Shown piece after piece: positions 18,362 through 37,903 of a stretch of DNA of 64,000 nucleotides; the first letter of the stretch is position 1; every line of letters starts with the position of its first letter. Position numbers and translations under genes: made by a program. The notes under the pieces are model-generated. The model was not told the DNA's origin, ran no database searches, and worked only from the letters and a program-made list of their open reading frames with translations. Source of the DNA: a virus (lineage: Duplodnaviria; Heunggongvirae; Uroviricota; Caudoviricetes); the IMG/VR virus record IMGVR_UViG_3300006143_000002; one strand, written 5' to 3'.

Positions 18362-20818
18362 TTATACTCCTCCATTTGCATAATATTCATTTCTTAATGA
18401 AATAATATTATCTTTTTTCCTTAGTTCAACTATCTTACTGATATTTTCTTTACCAATATTAATATTTTCTTTTATATTTTCACAAGTATAACCTGTTTCT
18501 GTTCTAGTTTTTATTTGTTTTTGCATAATTATACTTTCACCATCTTCTGCTAGTTCACATTGTTTTAAATCAGATAATTTTACAAAATCATTATTTATAT
18601 TATCTAATATTTTCATATACTCAACACATTTATCATCATATTTATCTTTAATAAATTTATAAAAATAATTCGCAGTTGCATTATATAGTTTTCTTAATTC
18701 TACATTTTTACCATTCATAGTCATTTCATAAACAGTCCTCATAGACTTCCAAAAAGAATAATAACTAAATTTAAGCTTTGTCATAAATGTTCCACATTCA
18801 ATTACAACGCCTTCTATATCTGTGTCTATTAATTCATTTTGATTTTTATGTTGTTCATAAAATTCAGTTAATTGCCTATATGTATCAAATTTAATATATA
18901 CTTGCTTATAATCTGTATCTTTTAATTTTAACGATTTAGCAATTTGCATTAATCCATCATAAGGTATCTTCTCAAAATCTACTTTATTATGAATTATATC
19001 TAATAAGACAACTCTACTTTCTTTTTCATCTATAATATGAGGGTCATTTTCTAAATCTATAACTTCAAATGTCATTGACATATTATTATTTTTTAGAAAT
19101 ACTGTAATATTGTCTATTTGTTCTTCTGTAAATGTATTATAAAATAAATTTTTAAAATACATTGCATATTCTCCACAATTTGAAGATTTACTATGAAATT
19201 GTAAATTATCATTATAATAACTTAAAATGCCCAAGAAACCATTATATTTTTTATAAGCAACAACTTCTTCATCTGTATCAAATAATCTCTTTAAATTAAA
19301 TAATCTACATGATTCTTGTTCGTTTATATTAAAGAACTTTTCATAACCTCTTGCTACTATTTTATTATTTACAGTATCTATAAATAAACCTCTTGCTTTA
19401 ACAGTTTCCTTATCCCATTTATCTTTTTCAAATGCTTTACGTGTAAAGTTGAATGATGATATTCCACCTTCTAATACACTTTCTCTTATATTTCTATTAT
19501 TTCTTAATCTATCTACAATATTTTCTATATTTATTTCTTGTGTATTTACTATTTGTTGGTGTTCTTCCCAAGATGTATCCCTATATAAGTCATTTTTTAT
19601 ACTATGGAAAAATATACCCTTATTTGTTAATTCTGCTACTTTTAGATTTCCACCAAATTCAACACCATCCTCTAATGAGAATGATAAAGGTAAATCTCTC
19701 ATTGGTTTTTCTGGTGCAATATATCTATGTCCGTGTATTTGTATTATTGATTTATTTTTCATGTTTTCTGTATATGATTCGTCAATAGGGAATTTGAAAG
19801 CTCCAACACCATGTATCATTTGACTTGTTGATATTAAAGGTAAATTATTTGGGATAGTATTCAATCCCCCATGACATACAAAATATGTTTGTCCTTTAAA
19901 GTTTATATAAGCCATTTGTCCTAGTTTTCTATAAAACTTTCTCATACTTGATGGGTCTATTGATTTAATTTGTGGTAATGTAAAGTTCATAAATTCTTTA
20001 CTTTTAATCTCGCTATCCAGTTCATTTGCCCAATACCAAATAAATCTTTCATGATTTCCTTCTAATAAAAGTACATTACTTTTTTGACATATACTAATAA
20101 TAAATTCTAATACTTCCTTATTTTGTAGTCCTCTATCTAAATAGTCCCCTACAAATATATAAGCATCTTCATCATTTAAAAATTGATGTAAATTTTGAGA
20201 ATTTACTTCTTCTTGATATTCTGTATATGTTTGTTTTAGTATATATTCTTTTAATGGGTTAAAACAACCATGAATATCTCCTATAATATGTATTCTTTTA
20301 TACTCATTAAAATCAAATTCTTTATTACTAAATGTTTCCCAAAACTTATCTCTAGGAATATCTACCCAACCACTTGTCTTTTCTTGAGTTTCAAATCTTG
20401 CATACATTTTATCAATTACTTCATCAGGAACTCTTTTATAGGCATTTCTTTGATGATTTCTTTCTATACATACTTCTTTTGGTACATCTGTAAATGATAC
20501 TACATACTTTCTATATCTATATGATTCACATAATGAATTATATCTACTAAAATCTGTTGAACGGCTATGTGTTGCATCTATTATAGTAAAATCTCCATTT
20601 TTCATTCTTTTCTCTAATAATTCATATAATAATGACCATATATAAGATTCATTTTCTTGTGATATAGTTGCATCTGTTCCATTTTCTGTCAATATTGGTG
20701 CAGATGCCATCATTCTTATATTATCTGGGCTTATTGTATATTGCTCTAAACCATTTTCTTTTATCCAGGTTGATTTACCTGAACCTGGGCATCCCCTTAA
20801 AACCACTAAATTTCTCAT
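18362..20818 (-). CDS. pnkp: trifunctional polynucleotide kinase / metallophosphatase / RNA ligase (bacterial Pnkp-like)
   Basis: P-loop GCPGSGKST. Calcineurin-like motifs GDIHG, GDYLDRG, GNHE. C-terminal covalent nucleotidyltransferase motifs I KYNG, III TFEVID, IV EGVVIE, V KLK in order. Start set at MRNLVV after RBS GAGAGGTAGG. The ORF-track N-terminal extension overlaps the promoter. Confidence 0.75.
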   Translation of the reverse strand: MRNLVVLRGCPGSGKSTWIKENGLEQYTISPDNIRMMASAPILTENGTDATISQENESYIWSLLYELLEKRMKNGDFTIIDATHSRSTDFSRYNSLCESYRYRKYVVSFTDVPKEVCIERNHQRNAYKRVPDEVIDKMYARFETQEKTSGWVDIPRDKFWETFSNKEFDFNEYKRIHIIGDIHGCFNPLKEYILKQTYTEYQEEVNSQNLHQFLNDEDAYIFVGDYLDRGLQNKEVLEFIISICQKSNVLLLEGNHERFIWYWANELDSEIKSKEFMNFTLPQIKSIDPSSMRKFYRKLGQMAYINFKGQTYFVCHGGLNTIPNNLPLISTSQMIHGVGAFKFPIDESYTENMKNKSIIQIHGHRYIAPEKPMRDLPLSFSLEDGVEFGGNLKVAELTNKGIFFHSIKNDLYRDTSWEEHQQIVNTQEINIENIVDRLRNNRNIRESVLEGGISSFNFTRKAFEKDKWDKETVKARGLFIDTVNNKIVARGYEKFFNINEQESCRLFNLKRLFDTDEEVVAYKKYNGFLGILSYYNDNLQFHSKSSNCGEYAMYFKNLFYNTFTEEQIDNITVFLKNNNMSMTFEVIDLENDPHIIDEKESRVVLLDIIHNKVDFEKIPYDGLMQIAKSLKLKDTDYKQVYIKFDTYRQLTEFYEQHKNQNELIDTDIEGVVIECGTFMTKLKFSYYSFWKSMRTVYEMTMNGKNVELRKLYNATANYFYKFIKDKYDDKCVEYMKILDNINNDFVKLSDLKQCELAEDGESIIMQKQIKTRTETGYTCENIKENINIGKENISKIVELRKKDNIISLRNEYYANGGV

Positions 20819-20836
20819 AAAATTTCCTACCTCTCT

Positions 20837-20865
20837 GTTTTTGTTTATTATATAATAAGTTTTAA
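20837..20865 (-). promoter_or_regulatory. consensus promoter (extended family member), drives pnkp
   Basis: Reverse complement reads CTTGACATATTTTAAAACTTATTATATAAT. Confidence 0.6.
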
Positions 20866-20881
20866 AATATGTCAAGTATTT

Positions 20882-21112
20882 TTATAACTTTTTTAAATCT
20901 TCTATTAAATCAGTTCCATTATTACTATGAAATAGTGCATCTAAATCATGGTCAATACATATTTCTTTATTAGAATCAAATAACTCTGTATCTATATTAC
21001 TATTATCTAACCATGAATATAACTCACTTTCCAATAATGTTAATTTACTTCCTATTTCCTCTATCTCTGTAATCAAATCTAGTATTCTTTTTGGTATCTT
21101 CATTATCATCAC
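20882..21112 (-). CDS. hypothetical small protein
   Basis: 76-aa ORF. Confidence 0.25.
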   Translation of the reverse strand: MMIMKIPKRILDLITEIEEIGSKLTLLESELYSWLDNSNIDTELFDSNKEICIDHDLDALFHSNNGTDLIEDLKKL

Positions 21113-21114
21113 CT

Positions 21115-21747
21115 TTATTTATTTCTATCCTTATAAACATCTTCATACATCTTTCTCCACAAATTGTAACCATCTGCTTCTCCACCTCGTTTATAATGTC
21201 CCATCGTTGGTATCCAAATACAATCATAATCATATACTAATTCATAACTATTAGAAGTTATTATAATATGTATATCAATATTTTTTTCTTTACAATCATC
21301 TAATATCAACCTGAATAATGACCTATAAGTAAGCATTAAATCTATACTAACACCACTATCACAACCATCAATTAAAATATATCCTTCTTTAATATTACCA
21401 TCAACTAATTGTCTTACATAATCACCTATCTTTGGAACATTTATATCTACAAGTGTATCAAATACTCTTTGCCCCTCAGAACTTACTATATGTTTTGCTA
21501 ATGACTGCATATCACCTGATAATGTAAAACTATCTGCTTTATGTTTTCCTTCTTCATACACATTTACATTTATATATTTCTTTTTCTGCTCATCTAAATA
21601 ATCACAAATTTGGGTACAAGCATAAGTCTTTCCACTACCATTAGGTCCTGTTAAAACAGTTACCCCTGAATTTATTTCAATATCTTTTACATTATAACAT
21701 TTACCCTCTAATTTAAACTTTATCATTAAAAACTGCCTCCTATACAT
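21115..21747 (-). CDS. P-loop ATPase
   Basis: Walker A VLTGPNGSGKT and a Walker B-like ILIDGCDSG. Confidence 0.45.
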   Translation of the reverse strand: MYRRQFLMIKFKLEGKCYNVKDIEINSGVTVLTGPNGSGKTYACTQICDYLDEQKKKYINVNVYEEGKHKADSFTLSGDMQSLAKHIVSSEGQRVFDTLVDINVPKIGDYVRQLVDGNIKEGYILIDGCDSGVSIDLMLTYRSLFRLILDDCKEKNIDIHIIITSNSYELVYDYDCIWIPTMGHYKRGGEADGYNLWRKMYEDVYKDRNK

Positions 21748-21897
21748 GCTAAAATTCCTATAATACTTATCACTATTGCAGATATTCCAGCAAAATCTTC
21801 CATACCTGCAGCAACATCGTCTTTATATTTATATAATATTCCATTTCCTATTATAAATATTATAATACATATAATTATTCCTAATACTCTATTCATC

Positions 21898-22803
21898 TTA
21901 TTTTCCTCCTTTTTCTTCTGGATTTAATATTATATTCCTTTGTAATTTTGGCTTATCCTTTGCCTTTACATAACTTTCAATAAATACAATTTTACCATCT
22001 TTGTAATGTCTATAATGCCCTTTAACATCAAATTGATGAGAATATTCAAATCCTTCCCTTCTTTTAATCATAGTTTGTACTTTTGATTGAGGTGCTTTAG
22101 ATAAATCATAAAAACTTGTTGTAATAATCTTAGTATTTGATACTTTTTTAGGTCTTTTTCTATTTAAAATAGTATCTTTTACTTCTTCTTTAGACAACTG
22201 TTGTTCATATCTATATTTATTTTTATATAAAGTCATATACCACATTGCACTAATAAATAAACCTGTATATATCATCATCATTGAATTTTGGAACTCATGT
22301 TCTCCATCTATTGCACATGAAGCATTTTCTATAATAATTGTATTGCCAATCCCACTAATATCTCCCAAAGATGATAACAACTTATAATCAACATCTCTAT
22401 ATTTCTGCAATGGAATATTTATTATTTGCTGTTCTGTTATACTTGAAAATATAGTTATGTTTGGAAGATTATCTATAAACTTGTAACTTATAACTATATC
22501 ATTTAACATAACTGAATATACATCACGTTCTAATTCTTCTTCAATTACTCTATATGTTGTTTTGCATTCCTTAGCCATCTTCTTTATAAATTCACTTTTA
22601 CAATTATTTATAAATTCACAAGGTATATTAGAAATAGTTATATATCCTTCTTCAAATACTTTTGGAATATCACTTAATCTAGTATTTGAAATATCTTCAC
22701 AATACCACTTTAAAAATGGTATTGTCTTATTACTTGGAATACTTATTATAGGTAAATTATAATCTATTTTTAAATTTTTATTAAATTGTGCTTTATTACT
22801 CAT
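21898..22803 (-). CDS. hypothetical protein
   Basis: 301-aa ORF, no motif recognised. Confidence 0.35.
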   Translation of the reverse strand: MSNKAQFNKNLKIDYNLPIISIPSNKTIPFLKWYCEDISNTRLSDIPKVFEEGYITISNIPCEFINNCKSEFIKKMAKECKTTYRVIEEELERDVYSVMLNDIVISYKFIDNLPNITIFSSITEQQIINIPLQKYRDVDYKLLSSLGDISGIGNTIIIENASCAIDGEHEFQNSMMMIYTGLFISAMWYMTLYKNKYRYEQQLSKEEVKDTILNRKRPKKVSNTKIITTSFYDLSKAPQSKVQTMIKRREGFEYSHQFDVKGHYRHYKDGKIVFIESYVKAKDKPKLQRNIILNPEEKGGK

Positions 22804-22978
22804 ATCTACACAACTCCTTTAAATATGTATCATAATCTATGCTTTTCAATCTATTCTTAATAAACTTATATCTATCTCTTTGTATATAATCTCCACAATT
22901 TCCATCCTTACTTTCAGTTACATTACAAAATGGAAATTTACTACAAGTTCTGCACTTATTACATATAAAATTACTCAT
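22796..22978 (-). CDS. small Cys-rich protein
   Basis: [13 protein letters not shown]. Confidence 0.3.
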
Positions 22979-23876
22979 AGCTACCTCCTAATCTTGATGG
23001 GTGTCTTAATTTCCTAAATGCCCTTGCTTCTATTTGTCTTATTCTTTCTTTTGTTACACCTAGTTGCCTTCCTGTATCTTCTAATGTATATGGTGCATTA
23101 TTTAAACTTGTTCCATCTTTTATTTTTGGTATATCTTTATAATATATATCTGGTAATAGACCATACCTGTACTTTAATACAAAAGATTCTCTTGTTGTAA
23201 GTGTATTATTCAAATGATATATTAACTTTTGTACTATTCTAGAATTATTTTCTATTTTATCTATCTCATTAAGTATAAATTCATCATTTATTATATCTAC
23301 AGTAGTATTACTATATGTATCATCTATATATTCTTCTATTTTACTTGAATTTTGATTATGTATTATTTTTGCATGGTCAAACAAGTGCATTGTTCTTGCA
23401 AAACCTTTATTTCTATTATCTAACATTCTCATTTGATATTCAATTTCCAAATCTTTATCTTCCATAAAATAATCATTAGGATACTTTTTTCTATAATCTG
23501 CTATTGCTTCCTTTATATATTCTTCGTCTGTTTTACTTTCATATACTTTATGAAAGTAACCTCTATCTGTAATTTTATTTCTATAATATAAGTTAGATGC
23601 TAAACAATTAGAAGAATCACCATCTTTAAAATCAACAACATCTAAACCATCTTTATTATCTACAAAATATTCTGCAACTAAATTAGCAAGGTCTATTAAT
23701 CTAAAACCTTTTCGAGTACCTGTTCTCAAATATACTTTTGTTCTAGAACCTCCCGATGTAGATAAAGTATAATGTTTTAAATATTTACCTGTTGATTTTT
23801 CTCTAACTATACTCATATTAGATACTTCATAATCTTGGTTGTTTTCGATTGTTTTCCACTCTATCATAAACCTCAC
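22971..23876 (-). CDS. sigma-70 region-4 domain protein with an N-terminal NUMOD4-like motif
   Basis: C-terminus [15 protein letters not shown]...[29 protein letters not shown] is a near-textbook sigma region 4.1/4.2. N-terminus [20 protein letters not shown] resembles the NUMOD4 motif of homing endonucleases. Confidence 0.55.
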
Positions 23877-23902
23877 CTTCTTATATTATAATCTTATATA
23901 TT

Positions 23903-23977
23903 TGGCAGGAGTGCTAGGATTTGAACCCAGACAAACAGTTTTGGAGACTGCTGTGCTACCATTAACACTACACTCCT
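23903..23977 (-). tRNA. tRNA-Trp (anticodon CCA)
   Basis: 75-nt cloverleaf folded by hand: 7-bp acceptor AGGAGTG/CACTCCT, D-stem GTGT/GCAC, anticodon stem GCAGT/ACTGT with loop CTCCAAA, T-arm CTGGG-TTCAAAT-CCTAG, discriminator G and encoded CCA. Confidence 0.65.
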
Positions 23978-23986
23978 ATATAGGGT

Positions 23987-24062
23987 TGGAGCTTCATATT
24001 GGATTCGAACCAATGGTCACAGATTTGCAATCTGTTGCCTTAACCAACTTGGCTAATGAAGC
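23987..24062 (-). tRNA. tRNA-Cys (anticodon GCA)
   Basis: 76 nt: acceptor GCTTCAT/ATGAAGC, anticodon stem ACAGA/TCTGT with loop TTGCAAA, T-arm ATTGG-TTCGAAT-CCAAT, encoded CCA. Confidence 0.65.
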
Positions 24063-24086: not shown

Positions 24087-24875
24087 CTACTCTTCTTCTG
24101 GTACTAATAAAAATTTATCTATAAAATCTCTATCTTTATTAAATAATGGTATTTCTGTATCACAGAATATTCCCTCATCTTTTCTATATACACAAAATCC
24201 TCTTTTCCATTTAGTTTCTAAATTATTCCAATTTATATTGTACTTTTCCATTAACATATCTTGTATATCACTTGTATTTTTCTTATCAAGTTGTTTTTGA
24301 CTAAACTTTGATTGTCCTAGTGATTGTATTGAGTTTCTTGATGCATCTTGTTGCCTCCATAAAAAGTAATTACATACATCTTCCTTTGGTATATTAAATG
24401 CTCTTGCATCAAACATTGCTATACCCATTTTCTTTTGCCATTTATTAAATAAGTCTAAATTCTCTGGTTCATCTGAATTTGCATAACCAGACCAAGCTAA
24501 TACCTTTTGTGTTACAAACTTATTAAAATACATTGTTGCTGCTGATGCTATTACTGAACATACCTTTTGTAATCTATAATCAAAATAACTATCAGTAGTT
24601 AATTTATCCCAGTCTGTTAATAATAAACTTATCTCATCAGACTGTGTATATGCTAACTTGCACCCTTGAACACTCAATATAAGATTTTCACAAACATATT
24701 GCATTACTTGTGATAGTATTTCATCAAATGGTTTATCTAAACCTCTTGTAAATGTGTGGAATGCTTTACCATCTATTCTTACTATAACAGGTGTTCTTTT
24801 TGTAAGTTTAACATCTGATACAGATTCATAATCTTTCATTCTATCACTTAATGTTTTTATCTTTGAATTTGACAT
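24087..24875 (-). CDS. thg1: Thg1-like protein (tRNA 3'-5' nucleotidyltransferase, TLP)
   Basis: Collinear matches to the Thg1 family: VIVRIDGKAFHTFT, KPFD, LAYTQSDEISLLL, FDARAFNIPKEDVCNYFLWRQQDASRNSI, KYNINWNNLETKWKRG. Confidence 0.8.
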   Translation of the reverse strand: MSNSKIKTLSDRMKDYESVSDVKLTKRTPVIVRIDGKAFHTFTRGLDKPFDEILSQVMQYVCENLILSVQGCKLAYTQSDEISLLLTDWDKLTTDSYFDYRLQKVCSVIASAATMYFNKFVTQKVLAWSGYANSDEPENLDLFNKWQKKMGIAMFDARAFNIPKEDVCNYFLWRQQDASRNSIQSLGQSKFSQKQLDKKNTSDIQDMLMEKYNINWNNLETKWKRGFCVYRKDEGIFCDTEIPLFNKDRDFIDKFLLVPEEE

Positions 24876-24918: not shown

Positions 24919-24947
24919 ATTATACTATAAGTTTTAAAATATGTCAA
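24919..24947 (-). promoter_or_regulatory. consensus promoter (extended family), drives the Thg1-like gene
   Basis: Reverse complement reads CCTTGACATATTTTAAAACTTATAGTATAAT. Confidence 0.6.
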
Positions 24948-24970
24948 GGGTTTTTTCAAAATTTATTAAA

Positions 24971-25057: not shown

Positions 25058-25861
25058 CTATATTGTAAAATCATAATTTAAAGCTTTCTCATTTATATCT
25101 ATCAACCATTTATTTATTTTATGATAATCTGGTGTCTTTTGTAATGTACTTTCATCATAGTATTGGTGTATCTCTTTATCTAATCTGTCAAACATATCAA
25201 ATATTTCTTCTAATGTATATTTTCCTGCTCTTATATCTAATAATAATTTTCTCTCTTCTTCTGGTCTGTAAGAACAATAATCATGTGTTAATAATATTTG
25301 TTTTGCACAATATAGTAATCTTATAGCATGATAAGCAAATTTAGTATCATAACCAAATTTTTCAACTAAATCTTGTCTGCCAGTTCCATTTTGCTTCTTT
25401 ATATCTAGTTTATACCTTTGTGACATTGCAAATCCACAAAACTTTTTATATATTTCCTTAGATAAAAATTCTTTTCTTATACTTCTTAACTCTTTTCCAA
25501 AATCATCTATATGAATTATATCTTCATCTCTACAAAATAGTATATCAATATTATTTGGTACACCTTGCATAGCGTCTCTAACAAATTTATTTATATGGCA
25601 TATTACTATATCAATATCTTCTTTTGTATTATGTTCTCCAAAATTTTTACCACCAGACTTATTATATTCATTTATAGATTTTAATCCTAAATAATATTCT
25701 TTTGGTGGAATACATACACCCTTATAATCAGTATCAGATGTTTCTACATTTGTTCCATATATAACTGAACCTGCTTTAGTTAATAATATTGTTCTGTCTT
25801 CCAACCACATCATATTATCTGGTAGAACATGTTCTATATCTTTAAAACTAACTTTTGCCAT
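25058..25861 (-). CDS. Pol-beta-superfamily nucleotidyltransferase (RlaP / PF10127-like, RNA-repair-associated type)
   Basis: GSVIYGTNVETSDTDYKGV matches the hG[GS]...SDxD nucleotidyltransferase signature. 267 aa. Adjacent to the Thg1-like gene. Confidence 0.5.
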   Translation of the reverse strand: MAKVSFKDIEHVLPDNMMWLEDRTILLTKAGSVIYGTNVETSDTDYKGVCIPPKEYYLGLKSINEYNKSGGKNFGEHNTKEDIDIVICHINKFVRDAMQGVPNNIDILFCRDEDIIHIDDFGKELRSIRKEFLSKEIYKKFCGFAMSQRYKLDIKKQNGTGRQDLVEKFGYDTKFAYHAIRLLYCAKQILLTHDYCSYRPEEERKLLLDIRAGKYTLEEIFDMFDRLDKEIHQYYDESTLQKTPDYHKINKWLIDINEKALNYDFTI

Positions 25862-25872: not shown

Positions 25873-26679
25873 CTATTTACTTATATTGAATAAAGCTGAA
25901 GTATTCTCACCCATCATAGTAGTAGGGAATTGTCCATTCCATTTTTCAATCATTTTTTGTTTAATTTCTAATTCTTTTAATTGTAATGTCTTATCTGTTA
26001 TTTGATTATTTTGTAGTTCCATTACTTTTGCATCTTTTTCTGCAATACTTATTTCCTTTTCATTTTGAATTTTTTGTTTTTCTAATTCTGCTTGTGCAGT
26101 TACTACCTCTTGTTGTTTAACTGCTTTTGCTTCTATTGCTGCGTTAAAAGCATCACTAAAATCTATATTTGTTGTATTAAATTCTGTTATAGTAATTCCT
26201 CTACTATCTATTTTATTTGTTAATGATTCTCTAATCATTGAAGATACTTCTGCTCTTTTTGTTATTAACTCTTCTGCTGTATATTGTGCCATTACACTCT
26301 TAACACTCTCTAATATAGCAGGATTTATAACTATATTTTCAAAGTCTGTACCAACCTCTCTATATAATTTATTTGCTGTGTCTTTTCTTACATTATAATT
26401 TAATGCTATTGTTACTGATACTGTTTGTAAATCTTTGGTGCTACTTTCAGATGTAGCATCTATTTTCTTTGTTTTGCAATCTACTAATACAATTTTTTCT
26501 ATAAATGGTATTTTACCATTTAGTCCTTCTTGTAATACATCGTTCTGTACTTTCCCAAATTGGGTCTTTACACCAACACATCCTGTTGGAATTGTTTTAA
26601 ATGAATTAAATAATACTATTACTGCAACTATTAAAATTATACCTAATACAATCCATTTAATTGTCTTTCTGTTTTCCAT
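25873..26679 (-). CDS. SPFH / Band-7 (prohibitin/HflK-like) membrane protein
   Basis: N-terminal TM helix, then GCVGVKTQFGKVQNDVLQEGLNGKIPFIEKI, the start of an SPFH domain, and a C-terminal coiled-coil. Confidence 0.6.
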   Translation of the reverse strand: MENRKTIKWIVLGIILIVAVIVLFNSFKTIPTGCVGVKTQFGKVQNDVLQEGLNGKIPFIEKIVLVDCKTKKIDATSESSTKDLQTVSVTIALNYNVRKDTANKLYREVGTDFENIVINPAILESVKSVMAQYTAEELITKRAEVSSMIRESLTNKIDSRGITITEFNTTNIDFSDAFNAAIEAKAVKQQEVVTAQAELEKQKIQNEKEISIAEKDAKVMELQNNQITDKTLQLKELEIKQKMIEKWNGQFPTTMMGENTSALFNISK

Positions 26680-29704: not shown

Positions 29705-31694
29705 TTAAAATAAACTATTATTTTTAGTATTTCCACCTATTAAATCTAAAAATGCTTGTTCTGTAATTATTTCAACACCATATTTTTGGGCATCTTTATT
29801 TTTGCTTGAACCACTATCTGGAGTATTTGTTATTAAATACTTACAAGACTTTATAGCACTTGATAGTTCATATCCATAACTTTCAATATACTTTTCAAAT
29901 GCACTTCTTTTCATTGTATTTAATGCACCTGTTACAGCAACTTTAATTATTTCTTTATTAGATACTTCTTTATACTTTATTCTATTTCCTATATATAATA
30001 TATTTTTTAATTTAGTTGTTTGATTTTCTATTATAGATTTAGTTGTAGCTTCTTTGACAATTTTTAATAACTTGTCACTTAGAATATTATCTATATATCC
30101 TAAACCTTTTATATCATTTATTAGCTGCTTTACTGTATTTGTTTCTTTTGCTAAATCTTTTGCAGTTTTATCACCTAATCTTGGGATATTTAAAGCAATT
30201 AAAGCTTTTTCTACATCTACCTTATTATTATATAGTTTTCCAAAAAATTCTACAGCCTTTCTATCTGTTATACTTAAATTAGATAAGTAAGCCCAGCTAT
30301 CAATTTTTTCTTTAGTTTCTAAACAATATAAATCTGATATACTCATGATTCTAAATTTTACTAAATATTGTTCCATAAGTGTCCAAGCCATACCATCTGT
30401 TTCGCCTATTGTTTCACACCATTGTCTTAAATCACTATATTCTATATTTGGACAATCTTTAAATGCACATTTTAAATCTACACCATCCCAAATTAAAGTA
30501 TGTCCACATATTGAGCATTTTTCTGGTAAATCTACATCTGCTGCTTCTAATGTGTCCATGTGCTTTGGAATAACCTCACCACTTCTGCATACAGAAATTG
30601 TAGCACCAACACCTAAACCATTATCTAATAAATATTGAGCATTATTTCCAGTTACATTATGCACTACTGCACCAGACAATTCTATTGGCTCAATTTCTAA
30701 TACTGGTATATATCTTTGTGTTCTTGATAATTCCCATTTAATATTATTTATTGTAGTTTCTTTTTCTTCTGCTGCAAATTTAAAAGCACACTCATCATAA
30801 ATATATGATTTTGCATCTTCATGATATATAACTTCTGTATTTGAGATTACAACACCATCTAATTCGTATCCCATCGTATATTTAAAACTTTCAAATGTAT
30901 CTTTCATATATTCTTCAAATTTATCTTTTCTATCTAATATAGTGGTAACAGTTTCAATAACATTCTTAAAATTCCACTTCAACCAATCTTTAATGTCTTC
31001 TTTGGCTGGATTTCTTCTACTACATACACTATCTGTAACAATATTATTCATATCCCTTTCTTGTCCTGTTATTTTATAAGTTATAAAATCAATTAATTTT
31101 ATATCATCTATTGAATAATCTTTAGAGTTTATCCAACCAGCACATAAATTTCTTGCATTTTTAGCTTCGGGATATTTATATTTAACCTTTTCCCAGTTTT
31201 CAACAGATATTTCTAATTCTCCTCTTACACCACCTGTAAAATTCTTATCTTCTATTTCATTACCTACAATTATTCTCGCCTTATCTGTAATATCTTTTCC
31301 CTCTTGACCATTACCTCTTGTAACTGCTTTAATCAATTTACCACCTTCATAATAAAATACACCAGTTAAACCATCTAGTTTAGGAGATAAAGATACAAAC
31401 CCATTTTTAAATCTTTCAGGAACTTCATCATAAGTTCTACATTTATCAAGACTTTTTACTAATTGATACTTATGTTTTACTTTATGCCCTGTTTGTTTGT
31501 AACCCCATCCGAGGAACTTGCAATATTTTAGAAGTAGGATTTAATAATCTTAGTCTATCAACCAAATTATCAAACTCTACATCTGTCAATGTTTGTGTAC
31601 CATCTGTATAATACTTCTCAGACTGTTCCTTTATAATTCTTTCTAATTTTTCAATTTCTTCTTTTTCATAATCACCGAATAACACAATAGTCAC
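29705..31694 (-). CDS. ligA: NAD+-dependent DNA ligase (LigA), split into two ORFs by a 1-nt frame shift at a CAAACAAACA repeat (~31486..31500)
   Basis: Upstream 70-aa ORF carries domain Ia (YYTDGTQTLTDVEFDNL...PTSKILQVPRMG). After a +1 shift the frame continues HKVKHKYQLVKSLDK...KLDG (adenylation motif I)...TRGNGQEGKDIT, then a Cys4 Zn finger CSICGHT..C and a C-terminal BRCT-like domain. Total ~663 aa. Confidence 0.65.
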
Positions 31695-32584: not shown

Positions 32585-32614
32585 ATATGTTACTAATGAA
32601 GTACCCTGATAATA

Positions 32615-32920
32615 TCATACACTATCAATATAACCATTACCAAATCTATCTCTTACATCATCTATTATATCTTCAAACCTTACCACATTATGTCTTTTTA
32701 GTAATTTTGAAAATGAGATACTTTTTTCTGTACTAACTATAGCACTCCAGAAATAATGTAATATTCCTTCTGGGTTTCTTTGTTGCATTCTCATTCTAGT
32801 ATATCTTGCACCTTGTGACATTTCAGGTATATTATTTTCTGTACCATATTGTATTGCTGGTTCAAATATGGTTTCATTAAAATAATTTAACATTTCTTCT
32901 TTTCTTTCTTGTTCTAACAT
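32615..32920 (-). CDS. hypothetical protein
   Basis: 101-aa ORF. Confidence 0.3.
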   Translation of the reverse strand: MLEQERKEEMLNYFNETIFEPAIQYGTENNIPEMSQGARYTRMRMQQRNPEGILHYFWSAIVSTEKSISFSKLLKRHNVVRFEDIIDDVRDRFGNGYIDSV

Positions 32921-32921
32921 A

Positions 32922-33137
32922 TTATCTACCCTCCATTTCTTCTTTTAAAAATTTTATAAAATCATCTGAATTCATATCACAATTTACTAATCCATTTATA
33001 TTATCTATAACAAAGTTAATATCTAACTCTAAATCATCAATTAAATAATCTTTAAGTTCCCAATATAATTTATGTACTATCTCTGCATGCTTACCTAATT
33101 TTTTTATTTGTTCTTTTCTATATTTTGGTAATTTCAT
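32922..33137 (-). CDS. hypothetical small protein
   Basis: 71-aa ORF. Confidence 0.3.
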   Translation of the reverse strand: MKLPKYRKEQIKKLGKHAEIVHKLYWELKDYLIDDLELDINFVIDNINGLVNCDMNSDDFIKFLKEEMEGR

Positions 33138-33138
33138 A

Positions 33139-33477
33139 TTAATCTACCTCCAACTTATATACTTTTATATTTTTTGGTTCATATATACATATTATAAAAA
33201 TATTATCATAATCCTTTATATATAATACATAAGATTTACCTCTATTATGATTTCCTTCTGCATAGGAACCACATCTATATCTCCAAATAACACTTGCATA
33301 TAAATTTATCCTAGCAACTAAATCTTGGATTACTTCATCTTTTGTAAATTCATTATACTTTGATGATGTCCATTTTATTATTTTGTTTAGATTAGTTCTA
33401 CTATATTTTAAGTTTTCATAACTTCCTATATCTATATAATTTTTAATTATATCTGAAATACCATCATAATATGCCAT
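33139..33477 (-). CDS. hypothetical protein
   Basis: 112-aa ORF. Confidence 0.3.
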   Translation of the reverse strand: MAYYDGISDIIKNYIDIGSYENLKYSRTNLNKIIKWTSSKYNEFTKDEVIQDLVARINLYASVIWRYRCGSYAEGNHNRGKSYVLYIKDYDNIFIICIYEPKNIKVYKLEVD

Positions 33478-33489
33478 GTTTTGTTCCTC

Positions 33490-33900
33490 CTATAATATAA
33501 CCATTTGCTTAGTTTCTAAAAAGTAGTAAATAACTTCTCCATTTTCACATTTATCTTCTACTCCATCAACTATATCTATTGAAAGAGATGTAGTTAAATA
33601 TTTAATACTATCTAAATGTTCTTTTTCTATATATGCTAATATACTTTTTCTAATAACTTCAATAAACTTTTCAATATCTGCATTAGTTAATTTATCTTTA
33701 TCTAAAAATACTTTATCTAATAAATCATGTGCTTCAATATAGAGTTCTCTATATTTTAATAAACTATCATAATCATCTAAATATTTATATTTATCGGAAG
33801 CACTATAATAATTTTTAAACCAAAATCTATCCCAATAGTTCTTTAAATCTTCTGTATAATCATTATCACTAAAACTTGTTCTTATAATCATTTTAATCAC
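33490..33900 (-). CDS. hypothetical protein
   Basis: 136-aa ORF. Confidence 0.3.
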   Translation of the reverse strand: MIKMIIRTSFSDNDYTEDLKNYWDRFWFKNYYSASDKYKYLDDYDSLLKYRELYIEAHDLLDKVFLDKDKLTNADIEKFIEVIRKSILAYIEKEHLDSIKYLTTSLSIDIVDGVEDKCENGEVIYYFLETKQMVIL

Positions 33901-34024
33901 TTCCTTTTCTTTTTATTGCTTCTTTTACTTAGATTTTTAAAAAATCTATCTTGATATTCTTTTACATTTTTCTTTCTCTGTCTTTCTTGATACTCATAAT
34001 TAATATGTTGTAAATCAGGTTCCA

Positions 34025-34513
34025 TTAATTATCTCCTTTCTTTAATCTTTTCTGTTGTTCTTTTTGTAATTTTTCAACTCTTTCTGCATTTAATTTTACT
34101 TGCTTTTGATTTTCTTCATATTCATTCTTTTTGAAATCTCCAAAATCTATAATTGATTTTATTAGACTTTGTGTTCTACCAAGAAAACTATATACATATT
34201 CTATATTATCATTACAATCATTTTTATTTCTTTTGAAGTTTTTAACATCATTTTTAAATAAATTAAAATTATTCATTAGCATATAGATTATATCTAATCT
34301 TTTTTGATTGTCCATTGCAATATATACAACATCTGCCATAAATGATGGTGGTCCTACCTGACTTAAATTCATACATGCTTTCGCAATATCCTCATTCAAT
34401 TTACTTAAATTTATAGTATTTACTACACAATCTTTTAATTCTACTAAATCTTCTGTTGATAATAAATCTATATCTATATTGTTTATATTTTTAATTATTA
34501 ATTCATTTGCCAT
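34025..34513 (-). CDS. hypothetical protein
   Basis: 162 aa, K/E-rich C-terminus. Consensus promoter at 34557..34585. Confidence 0.3.
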   Translation of the reverse strand: MANELIIKNINNIDIDLLSTEDLVELKDCVVNTINLSKLNEDIAKACMNLSQVGPPSFMADVVYIAMDNQKRLDIIYMLMNNFNLFKNDVKNFKRNKNDCNDNIEYVYSFLGRTQSLIKSIIDFGDFKKNEYEENQKQVKLNAERVEKLQKEQQKRLKKGDN

Positions 34514-34556
34514 TTATAACACCTTCCTACAAATATTATAACATCTTCTTATATCT

Positions 34557-34585
34557 ATTATACTATAAGTTTTAAAATATGTCAA
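34557..34585 (-). promoter_or_regulatory. consensus promoter (extended family)
   Basis: Reverse complement reads CTTGACATATTTTAAAACTTATAGTATAAT. Confidence 0.6.
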
Positions 34586-34593
34586 GCATTTTT

Positions 34594-34628
34594 GAAAATA
34601 AAAATAAGTAGGAATAAACCTACTTATT
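34594..34628 (-). terminator. terminator of the tRNA operon
   Basis: AATAAGTAGG-TTTATT-CCTACTTATT plus TTTTTATTTTC. Confidence 0.5.
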
Positions 34629-34767
34629 TATAATTATTTACCCAAGTAACAAATATACTTTCTTTAAACCACTACTCATATATTTGTTATTTAGATAGGT
34701 TATTATCCTGTGGGATTGGCTTTCTTTAGGCTCTTGAAGTGCTATTCCCACCAAGTTGAACCTGTTA

Positions 34768-34859
34768 TGGCGACATAGCTAGGATTTGAACCTAGGAACC
34801 CATTTCTGGATTGCCAGTTTTCAAGACTGGTGCATTAAACCAAACTCTGCCACTATGCC
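34768..34859 (-). tRNA. tRNA-Ser (anticodon TGA), type II
   Basis: 92 nt: acceptor GGCATAG/CTATGTC, 3-bp D-stem with long loop, anticodon stem CCAGT/ACTGG with loop CTTGAAA, long variable arm, T-arm CTAGG-TTCAAAT-CCTAG, encoded CCA. Confidence 0.6.
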
Positions 34860-34872
34860 CTATTTTTATTTA

Positions 34873-34944
34873 CAGCCATTGTTGGATTCGAACCAACCTC
34901 TCCTTACATTAGTAAAGTAATTTTTCCTACTAAACTAAATGACT
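34873..34944 (-). tRNA. tRNA-like gene, non-canonical (good acceptor and T-arm, aberrant D/anticodon region)
   Basis: Acceptor AGTCATT/AATGGCT, T-arm GTTGG-TTCGAAT-CCAAC. The central region folds as CTTTAC-TAAT-GTAAGG rather than a 7-nt anticodon loop. Confidence 0.3.
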
Positions 34945-35032
34945 ATATTAAAAAGATGCTTGATTTCTGCAGCTCTCAGCATCTTTTTGCCTAATCTCTA
35001 TATAGTGAATTCTGCCTATATATTTTAGACTT

Positions 35033-35103
35033 GCCTTTGAAATGGATTCGAACCATTGACTCCCTGTCGCATACAGGGGATTTTCCCACTAAACTATCAA
35101 AGG
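35033..35103 (-). tRNA. tRNA-like gene, anticodon loop TATGCGA (possible TGC/Ala, with A at position 33)
   Basis: Acceptor CCTTTGA/TCAAAGG, anticodon stem CCCTG/CAGGG, T-arm AATGG-TTCGAAT-CCATT. The D-arm is irregular. Confidence 0.35.
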
Positions 35104-35197
35104 GTATAATGTAAAGTAGGAGTAAATTATATTGACGTCAAATATAAATTTTATATCTAATGCGAGATACTATATTAACCTACTTTATTTTTGCATA

Positions 35198-35259
35198 TCA
35201 CCTGTTATGGATTCGAACCACTTTCTCCTATACATATATTTTCATACATGCAGCAGGTG
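35198..35259 (-). tRNA. tRNA-like fragment (T-arm and acceptor only, ~62 nt)
   Basis: TTCGAAT T-loop with a 6-bp acceptor. Too short for a D-arm and anticodon arm, so probably a pseudo-tRNA. Confidence 0.2.
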
Positions 35260-35264
35260 TTATT

Positions 35265-35339
35265 TGGTCGCAGGGGTTGGATTTGAACCAACATCGTCCG
35301 AAATATGGGCTCAGCTATGCTATATTACACCACCCTGCT
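35265..35339 (-). tRNA. tRNA-like gene, possible CAT anticodon, non-canonical
   Basis: Acceptor (A)GCAGGG/CCCTGC(G) with a 1:72 mismatch, T-arm GTTGG-TTCAAAT-CCAAC, encoded CCA. Anticodon stem CTGAG/TTCGG has wobble pairs and loop CCCATAT. D-arm is poor. Confidence 0.3.
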
Positions 35340-35343
35340 ATAT

Positions 35344-35419
35344 TGGGTGCGAGGGCTGGATTCGAACCAGCGAACTCTAGCTTATGAGGCTAGTGAGATG
35401 CCAACTTCTCCACCTCGCA
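35344..35419 (-). tRNA. tRNA-Met/Ile2 (anticodon CAT)
   Basis: 76-nt canonical cloverleaf: acceptor TGCGAGG/CCTCGCA, D-stem GAGA/TCTC, anticodon stem CTAGC/GCTAG with loop CTCATAA, T-arm GCTGG-TTCGAAT-CCAGC, discriminator C and CCA. Confidence 0.65.
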
Positions 35420-35454
35420 GTATTAAATTATTAGCATTACCTAATTAAAGGCTG

Positions 35455-35526
35455 GTCGAGTACATTGGATTCAAACCAATTCCATCATCCACCTGTTGGA
35501 TGCCGTGCACCATACACCATACTCGA
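35455..35526 (-). tRNA. tRNA-like gene, anticodon loop AACAGGT (non-canonical, no U33)
   Basis: Perfect 7-bp acceptor TCGAGTA/TACTCGA, D-stem GTGT/GCAC, anticodon stem CATCC/GGATG, T-arm ATTGG-TTTGAAT-CCAAT with one extra nucleotide before the acceptor. Confidence 0.35.
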
Positions 35527-35700
35527 TATATATATATACAAATGATTTAAGGTATATCATCAACCACACATCGAGCATTATTTATTTTTCATAGACTAAA
35601 CTATGATTAATCTATTTCATCTCATGCTCTATTTTGTTCACCTTTGAGAACCCTATGAAATAGATTATATATTACTTATACATAATATATAACATCTTTA

Positions 35701-35793
35701 TGGCGATAAGGGAGGGATTCGAACCCTCGATACATAATTAAATGTATGTCTCCTTAGCAGAGAGATGGTTTAAACCTACTCACCCACCTTACC
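35701..35793 (-). tRNA. tRNA-Ser (anticodon GCT), type II
   Basis: 93 nt: acceptor GGTAAGG/CCTTATC, anticodon stem TCTCT/GGAGA with loop CTGCTAA, long variable-arm hairpin ATACAT...ATGTAT, T-arm GAGGG-TTCGAAT-CCCTC, discriminator G and CCA. Confidence 0.6.
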
Positions 35794-36007
35794 ATTATAT
35801 TTTTAAATTGGTGAGATTCATAAACAACTAACTTTAGTCCCAGTAGAACGGATATTACCTTCATATTGCAATTCTCTTGTGTATGGTCATAGCAATACAT
35901 ATCTACAAAGTTTTAGTCCAGATATTCCATACATACTAATATCTAGTTTTATTTTAGTTGATTTGTGTACAACTCTGTTTAGTACCACATACACTTTGGT
36001 ACTTTTT

Positions 36008-36078
36008 CAGGGTATTGCAGGACTCGAACCTTAACTCTCTGCAATAGCAGATTGTTTTACCATTTAAACTATCAACCC
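36008..36078 (-). tRNA. degenerate tRNA-like element (perfect D-arm, weak acceptor and T-stem)
   Basis: GGGTTGA-TA-GTTT-AAATGGTA-AAAC D-arm and T-loop TTCGAGT. Acceptor pairs only 4 bp. Anticodon loop has 6 nt. Confidence 0.25.
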
Positions 36079-36313
36079 ATATATCTGTGAGAGCCTAATC
36101 ACTCTCTAGGGAATTGAAACCCTCCCAACTTGCAAAATTGGTACTTGTCACCCTATTATATTTAATCCAGTGTTTGTGTCCTACAAGATTACTCTTGTTA
36201 TTAAACGATACATAAGATTTTTGAGCTGGTTTTCTTATGCAGTAGAACCATCACTCTACATTTCAAACAGTCAGCTTTGTTCACTAGAGGCTACAACTTT
36301 CTCCGTCATGATT

Positions 36314-36342
36314 ATATTACCACAAGTTTAAATATATGTCAA
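36314..36342 (-). promoter_or_regulatory. promoter TTGACA-N17-TAATAT driving the tRNA array
   Basis: Reverse complement reads GCTTGACATATATTTAAACTTGTGGTAATAT. First tRNA-like gene lies ~230 nt downstream. Confidence 0.55.
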
Positions 36343-36358
36343 GCATTTTTTAAATTTT

Positions 36359-37903
36359 TTATTTAATTTTTTTATAAATTCTACTAAATGCCTCATATTC
36401 ACTTAAACATACTGGCTTAAAATTATTAACATCTACACCAACATTATATGAATTTTTAATCTTTTTTATAATATGGCTATTGCTATGAATATGCCCATAT
36501 AGATGAGTGCTACCATATTCTTTTTGTTTCCATGAAGATATTGGAAAATGAAATAATATGTATTTCTTATTATTGACTGTTATTTCTTTATAATCAACTA
36601 TCTCCTCAAATAAAGACTGGTCAAAATCTTTTCCAATACATATATTATCATGATTTCCTAATATAAGTATCTTTCTACCTCGTAATCTCTTAACAATTTC
36701 ATTAGTTTCTTTACTATTTCTAAATGATAAATCACCTAATATGAACACTAAATCATCATCATGTTTTACTGTACTATTCCATCTTCTTATAAGTTCTTCA
36801 TCATGAATTTTTATATATTCCTTATTAACCTCCATTTTATATTTATCCCAAAGGTCATCTGGTATATTATAAATTTCTTCATTTGTCAAACCTTCATCTT
36901 TTAATTTATTTACTATTGCTTGATGTTGGGTTATTCCACATAACTCCCATCTTTTTGGTTCAAAGTCTAATATATTTTCATGTCCAAAATGTAAGTCAGA
37001 TGTAAAAAATATTTTATCTGAGGTTGGTAACGATAGACCGCTTTTTCTTCTCCATTTATTTCTTTTTGGTGTAAAAATATTTCTTAAATATTTTTCAAAT
37101 ATTTTAACAGAGATTTTACTTAAAAATTCTTTAACCATGTCTTCACTATTTACTTCATTAAAAAACATATTTCTATGTGACTTTAATTGATTTATACTAT
37201 CATTTGCCAAATCTCTTGCTTCTTCTAATGAATATTTGCTTAATTTAGCATTAGTTAAAACTTCAATATTATCTTCCATATAATTATGGGAATTCATAGA
37301 TTTTTTAAAATCAAATGTTTCTATATATTTTTCTGCAAATAAATTTAATCTTAGTATATGATGTAATTGTTTTCCATCATATCCATATTTTTCTATCTTA
37401 TCTCTCAACCCTTCATAAGGATGTTCTAATGCTTCTAATTTATTTAAAGCCATACCATAAGTACAAACTATTAATTTTACTGGATTTGCACTAGAAATCA
37501 TATCAGCATTATCTAATATTTCTAACATATCATTTTTAAATAATGGGTTTAATATTCTAAATTCTGTATGTAATATTTCAAGATATTTTATATTTTGTTT
37601 TCTAAATAATTCTGTTATTAACCTAATATCTTTAACATCTATATGTTCATTATTATCTAATATTATTGTTTCAGATATATATTCATCCTTATTTATTAAG
37701 TTTTCAAAGGTAGGTAATACAATAGCTACTGTATCTATATCAGATTTATACTCATCTGTATATAAATCTAAATTATAATTTTGACTTCCTTGTAAGGCTA
37801 CCATTAAAAACTCATATTGTGGTCTCAATCTTTTTAATTCATTTACATGGTACTTTATACCTTTAAATATATTATTTTTTCTTTGTTTATCTATATCTGC
37901 CAT
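36359..37903 (-). CDS. Pol-beta nucleotidyltransferase (RlaP-like) fused to a calcineurin-like metallophosphoesterase
   Basis: N-terminal ALQGSQNYNLDLYTDEYKSDIDTVAIV nucleotidyltransferase signature. C-terminal metallophosphoesterase motifs SDLHFGHEN, ILGDLSF, GNHDN, GHIH. Lies directly upstream of the tRNA-array promoter. Confidence 0.55.
   Translation of the reverse strand: MADIDKQRKNNIFKGIKYHVNELKRLRPQYEFLMVALQGSQNYNLDLYTDEYKSDIDTVAIVLPTFENLINKDEYISETIILDNNEHIDVKDIRLITELFRKQNIKYLEILHTEFRILNPLFKNDMLEILDNADMISSANPVKLIVCTYGMALNKLEALEHPYEGLRDKIEKYGYDGKQLHHILRLNLFAEKYIETFDFKKSMNSHNYMEDNIEVLTNAKLSKYSLEEARDLANDSINQLKSHRNMFFNEVNSEDMVKEFLSKISVKIFEKYLRNIFTPKRNKWRRKSGLSLPTSDKIFFTSDLHFGHENILDFEPKRWELCGITQHQAIVNKLKDEGLTNEEIYNIPDDLWDKYKMEVNKEYIKIHDEELIRRWNSTVKHDDDLVFILGDLSFRNSKETNEIVKRLRGRKILILGNHDNICIGKDFDQSLFEEIVDYKEITVNNKKYILFHFPISSWKQKEYGSTHLYGHIHSNSHIIKKIKNSYNVGVDVNNFKPVCLSEYEAFSRIYKKIK

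Follow-up and report, generated by a model that had tools for sequence, protein, structure and literature searches.

A 64,000-nt stretch of viral DNA (IMG/VR record IMGVR_UViG_3300006143_000002), here called the window, encodes a three-domain RNA repair enzyme with kinase, phosphatase and ligase domains, a Thg1-like protein (TLP1) with a divergent paralogue (TLP2), two RlaP-like nucleotidyltransferases, one of them fused to a metallophosphoesterase, and a set of tRNA genes. Together these genes probably serve as an RNA-repair and tRNA-supply arsenal, with which a jumbo myovirus of the gut keeps translation going when its host cuts tRNAs. We observe recognizable domains, intact catalytic motifs, a gene linkage that is conserved in relatives, and promoters that the genes share. 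Cleavage of tRNAs is a widespread anti-phage strategy, employed by PrrC, RloC, PARIS, retrons, VapC and Cas12a3, and beyond phage T4 the countermeasures of phages are known mainly through comparative genomics. Unless another locus is named, coordinates below are window positions.

The window has a GC content of ~26%, all its genes lie on the minus strand (as do all the window features located below), and it encodes tail genes of myovirus type as well as holin and endolysin genes. Proteins identical to its RNA ligase and TLP were found again on metagenome contigs, in 12 index blocks with contigs of 0.2–1 Mb, and the nearest relatives occupy contigs of 210–241 kb; the source is therefore a jumbo phage of ~215 kb, an uncultivated myovirus of the animal gut. 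A pig-gut assembly yielded one of the relatives. A megablast search with 7.5 kb of the window against 50,697 deposited phage records gave zero matches at the nucleotide level, scanning IMG/VR for peptide patterns of the ligase likewise gave none, and all protein matches among the same phage records have less than 60% identity. The lineage is absent from the isolate phage collection. Hints to the host are limited to the gut samples, pig and other, and to the 26–28% GC of the contigs that carry the nearest cellular homologs. These homologs of the ligase (48–50% identity; L022–L027 among the numbered loci compared here) are found on contigs binned as metagenome-assembled genomes of gut Bacilli or 'Tenericutes', which may point to the host clade or may be phage contigs that were mis-binned.

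The three-domain enzyme (18362..20818) consists of a P-loop 5'-kinase, a binuclear metallophosphoesterase and a Trl1/Rnl6-like RNA ligase, as assigned by Pfam, PHROG and profile searches. Within the longer open reading frame (ORF) at 18362–20875, Pfam places AAA_33 at residues 23–162, Metallophos at 194–387 and RNA_lig_T4_1 at 493–706, and the protein matches PHROG 8238 ('RNA ligase') over its full length (1e-201). It contains the motifs GCPGSGKST, GDIHGC, GDYLDRG, GNHE, KYNG, EGVVI and KLKF, the residues of which are invariant among 16 divergent homologs, and the motif order proposed in the sequence-only reading of this DNA (P-loop, GDxHG/GDxxDRG/GNHE, KxNG...EGVV...KxK) holds on alignment. 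The kinase domain scores 81 bits with AAA_33 and matches the kinase of Clostridium thermocellum Pnkp (CthPnkp; 4gp6/4gp7) at 4e-11, while the phosphatase domain scores 59 bits with Metallophos and matches the CthPnkp phosphatase (4j6o) at 1.8e-14, with GDxHG, GDxxDRG and GNHE invariant. These Pnkp structures are the nearest solved relatives of both domains, and the order kinase–metallophosphoesterase–ligase is also that of the bacterial Pnkp/Hen1 system (TIGR04075).

The likeness to bacterial Pnkp does not extend to the ligase half, which in a profile search aligns with the whole LIG domain of eukaryote-type tRNA ligases (9qw7 at 7e-23; 6n0v, 6n67 and 6n0t at ~1e-13). Motifs I, IV and V (KYNG, EGVVI, KLKF) align with KANG, EGFVI and KYKF of the solved tRNA ligase 9qw7 and are invariant in the family. 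The alignment reaches chain residues 396–416 of the 407–434-aa LIG structures 6n0v and 6n67 and thus covers the C-terminal module of Trl1 (aa 328–406), which defines the Rnl6 clade apart from Rnl1 (T4) and Rnl4 (bacterial Pnkp) (PMC6379707). K691 and R694 are invariant and align with the RxxR 2'-PO4 site of Trl1 (KxxR versus RxxR). Against TIGR04075, the NCBIfam equivalog of bacterial Pnkp, the protein scores 104.2 bits with a cutoff of 750 and only residues 3–321 are aligned; the CthPnkp ligase domain is neither among the six matches at E ≤ 10 in a search with the ligase domain only nor among the 60 best profile matches listed. By these comparisons the ligase half is assigned to the Trl1/Rnl6 type rather than the Rnl4 type, and only the kinase and phosphatase halves are Pnkp-like. 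The description of the protein as a trifunctional Pnkp-type enzyme thus applies to two of its three domains.

Domain scans covered about 60 ORFs, nearly all those of at least 100 aa in the window, and among these we found no CCA-adding enzyme, RtcB, Pth, Hen1 or Tpt1. No scanned ORF has a methyltransferase domain that could mark a Hen1 partner, and the immediate neighbours of the enzyme are a MazE-like ORF and small ORFs. With Trl1 of fungi and kinetoplastids (Rnl6 clade; PMC6379707) the enzyme shares a trifunctional heal-and-seal design, but its order is kinase–phosphoesterase–ligase instead of ligase–kinase–cyclic phosphodiesterase, a metallophosphoesterase stands in place of the 2H cyclic phosphodiesterase (no 2H domain is found in the protein), and the Tpt1 partner is not seen. 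At E ≤ 1e-10 there are 4,905 homologs with the same architecture; Staphylococcus Twort/K-like, SPbeta-like and Fusobacterium phages have it, and so do many genomes of gut Bacillota.

The enzyme starts at the ATG at 20818 (818 aa) and not at the TTG at 20875 that had been taken as its start, because that TTG lies inside the TTGACA −35 box of a sigma-70 type promoter (cTTGACAt-17-TATAAT, 20847..20876) and because the 818-aa form occurs on other contigs. At the other end, the stop codon of the ligase gene is overlapped by 1 nt by the ATG of a 57-aa ORF with a MazE/AbrB (SpoVT) fold (18189..18362; Pfam MazE_antitoxin 27.9 bits, cutoff 24.7). Further matches of this small protein to the NCBIfam models doc_partner and AbrB stay below cutoffs, and the arrangement is the same in L002, L003 and L005; on the overlap, the two genes are predicted to be translationally coupled.

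TLP1 (24087..24875) is a Thg1-like 3'-5' nucleotidyltransferase that scores 108.5 bits with Pfam Thg1 (cutoff 29.2), matches PHROG 4717 at 8e-83 and 4KGK, a TLP structure from Bacillus thuringiensis, at 1e-61, and preserves the metal-binding carboxylates of RIDG and SDE. It had been called a canonical TLP, which these matches bear out; with the catalytic motifs intact, TLP1 is predicted to be an active Thg1-like polymerase. The family is found in 162 phage records. Its gene shares a promoter (24919..24948) with two tRNA genes, tRNA-Cys(GCA) at 23987..24062, which begins 24 nt past the TLP1 stop, and tRNA-Trp(CCA) at 23903..23977. Both of these neighbours, already noticed in the sequence-only reading, are canonical in the tRNA search, encode CCA and score 59–67 bits with RF00005.

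TLP2 (62381..63229) belongs to the same family by profile (Thg1 56 bits, cutoff 29.2), as had been proposed, but two of its catalytic carboxylates are replaced. It forms a clade with only three other clusters (42–70% identity), and in 4/4 clusters RIDG has become R[VI][KR]Q, SDE has become [HT]NE, and the WRQQDA motif has disappeared; K or R occupies the place of the first Asp and N that of the second, whereas other motifs persist. TLP2 is probably not an active polymerase. The pattern appears to be that of a maintained paralogue, catalytically altered or dead, rather than of a decaying gene.

The stand-alone RlaP nucleotidyltransferase (25058..25861, 267 aa) is recognized by PF10127 with 64.4 bits (cutoff 23) and by PHROG 388 at 3e-65, and it contains the Pol-beta GS...DxD motif in the sequence GSVIYGTNVETSDTD. 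The RlaP family is present in 1,424 phage records and includes NrdC.11 of T4. The second protein (36359..37903, 514 aa) joins an RlaP-like nucleotidyltransferase to an aq_1665-type metallophosphoesterase, an assignment that draws on PHROG, hhalign, homologs and structure; Pfam gives no significant domain and only GatD_N below threshold. It matches PHROG 388 (nucleotidyltransferase) at 1.5e-8 and also PHROG 547 (phosphoesterase). Aligned with hhalign, its N-terminal half matches the stand-alone RlaP of the window with 94.6% probability and E=6e-8, and the two have GS...DxD and KYGYDxK...H..RL in common. More than 100 full-length clusters of homologs exist, several of which have PF10127 together with PF12850 or PF00149. 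Invariant in the family are G39, S40, D55, D57 and D92 of the N-terminal half and, in the C-terminal half, the metallophosphoesterase residues of DxH, GD, GNH[DE], H and GHxH (D303/H305, G390/D391, G416-N417-H418, H452 and G470-H471-H473). The C-terminal half matches 1XM7 (aq_1665-type) at 4e-22, and 1XM7 ranks first in Foldseek; the AlphaFold2 (AF2) model of the protein (pLDDT 89) has two domains with a flexible linker. The earlier call of two RlaP-like proteins, one of them fused to a metallophosphoesterase, is thus upheld, with the N-terminal half of the fusion best called a divergent RlaP-like domain. No full-length match to the fusion exists in the 50,697 deposited phage records. Upstream of the fusion lies the gene of a HAD_SAK_2 'Swiss Army Knife' RNA-repair phosphatase (38821..39498; PF18143 55.7 bits, cutoff 27.5; HAD motif I in LDMDGV), and this gene is kept just upstream of the fusion in L008, L009, L015, L020 and L021. 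It adds to the genes named in the sequence-only reading, as do the MazE/AbrB-like ORF and a small P-loop ATPase described below.

Downstream of the fusion, an array of tRNA and tRNA-like genes spans 34768–36125. It is read from its own promoter (TTGACA-17-TAATAT with extended TG, 36314..36343) and closed by an intrinsic terminator in which an 11-bp stem is followed by a T run (34602..34629). Past the leader, which contains a degenerate tRNA-like element (36009–36078, below the RF00005 threshold), come the canonical Ser(GCU) (35701–35793), a Leu(CAG)-like element found by ARAGORN only (35453–35525), the canonical Met(CAU) (35344–35419), a second CAU tRNA (35268–35339), a degenerate T-arm element (~35195–35260, also below that threshold), two aberrant elements without CCA, one 'Ala(UGC)'-like (35033–35103) and one marked '?' (34872–34945), and the canonical Ser(UGA) (34768–34859). 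Six array elements score 33.9–63.6 bits with RF00005 (gathering threshold 29 bits), and there are two to three degenerate T-arm elements in total. The original count of about nine tRNA or tRNA-like genes in a promoter-driven array is a fair one. The second CAU tRNA carries C33 in place of U33 (loop CCCAUAU) together with an A1·G72 mismatch, and L015 keeps both features, while its acceptor and anticodon stems show compensatory changes. This tRNA may resemble an initiator, or its 5' end may be edited by the nearby TLP. The Leu(CAG)-like element, which has A33 and a short variable loop, is conserved. Some members of the array may be pseudo-tRNAs. Arrays occupy the equivalent position in L015, L020 and L021, and at that place in L020 a tmRNA (12148–12512, tag ANNYAEKVAA) lies within an array of 13 tRNAs.

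The array leader also contains a candidate structured RNA of ~76 nt (36077–36152), recognized by conservation and compensatory changes. The block is 90% identical in L021 although the flanking protein is only 57% identical, and in the three sequences available the helices show compensatory AU/GC changes while the loops GGUGACAAGUACC, GGGAGGGUUUCAAUUCC and GUGAUUAGGC are invariant. The block has no match in Rfam. The whole 229-nt leader was considered as a structured RNA and rejected, as its minimum free energy z-score of −0.6 is not significant and covariation is confined to the 76-nt sub-block. Exact 22–26-mers of the leader and array found no matches in viral contigs or in JGI metagenomes, and hence no extra copies for covariation.

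The linkage of these genes was compared in relatives that keep or reshuffle them at 38–76% identity. The entire layout of the window is reproduced in L020 and L021 (fusion 57–60% identical). In L018 (ligase 62% identical) RlaP, TLP, a stand-alone ATPase and the ligase fall within 5.4 kb, L009 (fusion 50% identical) has HAD_SAK_2, fusion and RlaP within 5 kb, and in L013 and L014 (fusion 38% identical) the fusion is followed by a TLP. RlaP orthologs adjoin the TLP in L018 and L021. In L019 the ligase (56% identical) is followed, after one small ORF, by a homolog (60% identity) of a putative tRNA-binding protein of the window, the YqeY/GatB-like product of 16103..16555, and a remnant of the same gene is found in L018; with 133 bits to Pfam YqeY, the earlier assignment of this protein to a GatB/YqeY tRNA-binding domain was correct. 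In the isolated phage Fnu1 the ligase gene lies ~900 bp from an array of five tRNAs. Among 80 cellular ligase loci, tRNA genes occur within 8 kb of the ligase in 23, and one locus (L073) has ligase, RlaP and TLP together. Separate homologs of the fusion halves stand directly beside the ligase in nine of the 80 (the N-terminal half in three, the C-terminal half in six). Since the halves of the RlaP–metallophosphoesterase fusion occur elsewhere as separate neighbours of the ligase, the pattern is of the Rosetta-stone kind, and a fusion in one genome whose counterparts in others are separate but adjacent genes argues strongly for a functional linkage. The co-localization is more than chance, as the layout recurs in L018, L020, L021, L009 and L013. 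Two checks called for when the genes were first noticed, a profile search and a comparison of gene neighbourhoods, thus came out in their favour: the ORFs fall in the named families and not in unrelated ones, and synteny is kept or reshuffled in the relatives.

These results lead us to the following scheme, in which we infer every substrate, the succession of the steps and which toxins the host employs. Host ribotoxins would cut tRNAs and leave termini with a 2',3'-cyclic phosphate and with a 5'-OH, at times with loss of nucleotides. The kinase of the three-domain enzyme would phosphorylate the 5'-OH, its metallophosphoesterase would strip the 3' phosphate and its Trl1/Rnl6-like ligase would seal the break. 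RlaP is known to add 1–2 NMP (nucleoside monophosphates) to an RNA 3'-OH and to restore function to over-damaged tRNA (PMC12776372); here, provided with the 3'-OH that it needs, it could restore the one or two nucleotides excised by 'smart' ribotoxins. In the fusion, the phosphoesterase half may ready the 3' end for the RlaP half, a union that makes sense because ribotoxins leave phosphorylated 3' ends. The fusion thereby suggests how RlaP gains its 3'-OH substrate in vivo, a step outside the single biochemical study of RlaP (PMC12776372). The HAD_SAK_2 phosphatase could act as an additional healer of 3' ends, and TLP1 could rebuild acceptor stems truncated at the 5' end by templated 3'-5' addition. 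Species beyond rescue might be substituted by the phage tRNAs (Cys, Trp, Met/CAU twice, Ser twice and Leu-CAG-like). YqeY may aid in tRNA binding, and an RNase of the MazF type may be kept in check by the MazE-like protein. Roles in tRNA repair and replacement are consistent with published biochemistry and comparative genomics (PMC12776372, PMC7824862, PMC10264068). Of the phage's six different anticodons, five are shared with documented VapC targets, namely Cys-GCA, Trp-CCA, Ser-UGA, Leu-CAG and CAU (PMC5175351). The comparison is post hoc, and so is the hypergeometric estimate of ~3e-4 (five of six anticodons among ~8 targets of ~45); we regard the overlap as suggestive only.

Several observations weigh against a dedicated repair system of this kind. 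A TLP needs a template strand, so it would not fill anticodon-loop gaps in a templated manner; because of this requirement it suits acceptor-stem rather than anticodon-loop damage, and its role is the least secure in the whole scheme. The proposal of counter-defence against host tRNA-cleaving toxins is plausible and fits the published framework, whereas the part that it gave the TLP in repairing anticodon-nuclease damage is not established. If the ligase needs a 2'-PO4 as Trl1 does, a Tpt1/KptA-type enzyme would be expected, and none is seen in the window. TLP and RlaP are each found within 8 kb of the ligase in just three of the 80 cellular loci, and in L009, L013 and L018 the enzymes have no tRNA genes next to them. 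The window's genes extend over 23 kb and several transcription units, with unrelated genes in between: a DNA ligase, two homing-endonuclease-like genes, an SPFH protein and a 948-aa protein without assignment. The ligase, TLP1 with tRNA-Cys and tRNA-Trp, and the array are each under a separate copy of a near-consensus promoter, and the same promoter class stands upstream of unrelated genes too. With at least five transcription units, this is a loosely clustered gene set and not a single operon, and the idea of a single module has to be given up.

Nine copies of this ~40-nt promoter, AAAAA[TC][GC]CTTGACATATTTTAAAACTTATAGTATAAT, were located, all near-consensus sigma-70 and all on the coding strand (13333, 20876, 24948, 34586, 36343, 43682, 45265, 55695 and 59102). 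Besides the TTG at 20875, a second mechanically assigned TTG 'start', at 55694, also falls inside the −35 box of a copy.

The genes could instead serve the biogenesis of the phage's own tRNAs and have nothing to do with counter-defence, with the TLP editing or repairing 5' ends of phage tRNAs (e.g. the A1·G72 end of the CAU tRNA), RlaP and the phosphoesterase finishing CCA-less 3' ends, and the ligase processing phage RNAs. The co-transcription of TLP1 with tRNA-Cys and tRNA-Trp across a gap of 24 nt agrees with this explanation, as does the fusion gene that abuts the array in the window and in L015, L020 and L021; in the array, several conserved members are without CCA or end unusually, and the A1·G72 mismatch is kept between phages. 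However, in the canonical phage tRNAs the 5' end is perfectly paired and CCA is encoded, the enzymes occur without nearby tRNAs in L009, L013 and L018, and no tRNA was found that is permuted or contains an intron and would thus require a ligase. Moreover, a kinase combined with a phosphoesterase is the signature of mending ends made by nucleases. We consider this explanation unlikely.

A broader role in RNA-end metabolism would have the enzymes act on mRNA or rRNA cut by MazF/RelE-type interferases or host RNases, or recycle RNA fragments during host takeover. The coupling of the MazE/AbrB-like ORF to the ligase gene would suit such a role, the kinase and metallophosphoesterase domains are not tRNA-specific, and the ligase belongs to a broad family in which most of the 4,905 homologs have no tRNA or TLP neighbours. 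Yet the ligase domain is closest to dedicated tRNA ligases, TLP and YqeY are tRNA-directed families, and tRNA genes accompany the ligase in the 23 of 80 loci mentioned above and in Fnu1. On this evidence we give little credence to a role that is not specific to tRNA. Finally, an incidental grouping of independent auxiliary genes in the accessory early region of a jumbo phage, with no cooperation among them, would account for the several transcription units, the intervening unrelated genes, the promoter class found on unrelated genes, and the homing endonucleases and insertions of a plastic region, but it is very improbable given that the linkages recur in differing arrangements and lineages (L009, L013, L018 and L073) and that the fusion and its separate neighbours make up a Rosetta-stone pattern.

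Repair and replacement of tRNAs, the reading that we prefer, places the window among systems that are already known. Phage T4, the paradigm, repairs tRNAs cut by the anticodon nuclease PrrC with Pnkp and Rnl1 and also has RlaP (NrdC.11) and eight tRNAs (PMC12776372). The window shares with T4 the heal-and-seal principle (5'-kinase, 3'-phosphatase and an ATP-dependent, Rnl1-related RNA ligase), the phage RlaP and the tRNA cluster. It differs in that a single chain carries the three activities, the phosphatase belongs to the binuclear metallophosphoesterases and not to the HAD (DxDxT) type, and the ligase has a Trl1-type C-module instead of the Rnl1 C-domain; the TLP, the RlaP–metallophosphoesterase fusion and HAD_SAK_2 are additional here, and the cognate host nuclease is known for T4 only. 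Iyer et al. 2021 (Viruses 13:63, section 3.4.9, Fig. 7a; PMC7824862), building on Burroughs & Aravind 2016, described phage tRNAs together with RNA ligases, polynucleotide kinase, HAD Swiss-army-knife and calcineurin-like phosphatases, RlaP, CCA-adding enzyme and, sporadically, Thg1 as a counter-defence repertoire. The concept and the parts list of that jumbo-phage repertoire are the same, and the differences are a lineage outside the isolate collection, a fusion without full-length match in phage records, and a degenerate second TLP. Phage tRNAs that act as nuclease-insensitive replacements, as in T5 and mycobacteriophages (PMC10264068, PMC11555353), resemble the present ones in the promoter-driven array, the altered anticodon loops (C33 or A33) and the overlap with VapC targets, although some of those here may be pseudo-tRNAs.

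The statement in the sequence-only reading that the combination is not a described system therefore does not stand: a phage toolkit of this type has been described, and the window is a new example and not a new system. The novelty lies in one more phage lineage, whose set is unusually full, in a fusion that isolate genomes do not have, and in a degenerate paralogue of the TLP. The lineage brings together a heal-and-seal enzyme on a single chain, in which the ligase module is of eukaryote type (Trl1-like), two RlaPs, Thg1-like proteins predicted to be active and degenerate, and tRNAs that match nuclease targets, an unusually complete parts list by which the established picture is extended and not changed.

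A more specific arrangement, which we offer as speculation and rate as improbable, is a pathway in which the fusion would be a dedicated 'trim-and-fill' enzyme for 3' ends and, together with a Hen1-independent Trl1-like trifunctional ligase, TLP1 and a dead TLP2 (acting as tRNA-binding partner or decoy), would rebuild tRNAs with losses on either side of the break. It would counter 'smart' ribotoxins, which excise nucleotides, as well as nucleases of the VapC type acting on single-isoacceptor tRNAs (Cys, Trp, Met). To our knowledge, no phage pathway of this kind has ever been reconstituted. As a side possibility, TLP1 may edit the CAU tRNA of the phage at its conserved A1·G72 end, and this would be the first 5'-tRNA editing outside eukaryotic organelles.

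A stand-alone P-loop ATPase of 203 aa is encoded between the TLP and the ligase (21115..21726), a position kept in L018 (61% identity) and in L002–L006. Its family has 283 representatives at E ≤ 1e-10, with invariant, ABC-like motifs (GxNGSGK, SEG and DGxDSG), and its AF2 model (pLDDT 91) finds only generic AAA+/ABC folds in Foldseek. AriA, PtuA and GajA were considered as identities for this protein and rejected, as the PADLOC matches are confined to the Walker-A region.

Close to TLP1 lies a 'sigma-like' gene (22971–23876) that combines a homing-endonuclease match at its N-terminus (PADLOC, 27 bits) with a sigma-70 region-4 helix-turn-helix. This gene, the tRNA pair and two other ORFs form a block that is missing from the otherwise syntenic L018, and the sigma-like block is probably a mobile insertion. 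The 301-aa protein was considered as a 'sigma factor' regulating the gene set and rejected, on account of the homing-endonuclease-like N-terminus, the presence of the sigma region-4 helix-turn-helix only, and the absence from L018.

An SPFH/Band-7 (prohibitin-like) gene (25873–26679) adjoins RlaP, and a LemA gene is located at 61141–61683; linkage of TLP and SPFH is also seen in the Fusobacterium phage Fnu1 and in L059. The NAD-dependent DNA ligase gene (29705–31694) is frameshifted near 31,490, where the Ia domain (ORF 31482–31694) is separated from the KLDG adenylation domain. The cause is one extra C (CCT-C-GG), as L018 reads ...TPGWGYEQTG... unbroken, and the same extra base is present in the independent assembly L004. 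The gene could be a pseudogene, it could be read by programmed +1 frameshifting at the rare codon CGG, or both assemblies could share an error. Splitting of the gene by a group I intron or GIY-YIG element was considered and rejected, as KLDG is present in the other frame and a single extra C explains the break.

Directly upstream of the fusion, a lone homolog of HsdS, the specificity subunit of type I restriction systems, with a single target recognition domain is encoded at 37906–38496 (PADLOC 2e-11; Pfam Methylase_S 23.9 bits), with a similar gene in L009; an anti-restriction or a decoy role are both possibilities. A third calcineurin-like metallophosphoesterase (47804–48550, Metallophos 47 bits) is located among the tail genes, away from the RNA genes. 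Downstream of the ligase–YqeY pair in L019 are genes for a proteasome-family (PF00227) protein (13243–13992) and for a full-length ribosomal protein bL9 (15608–16111).

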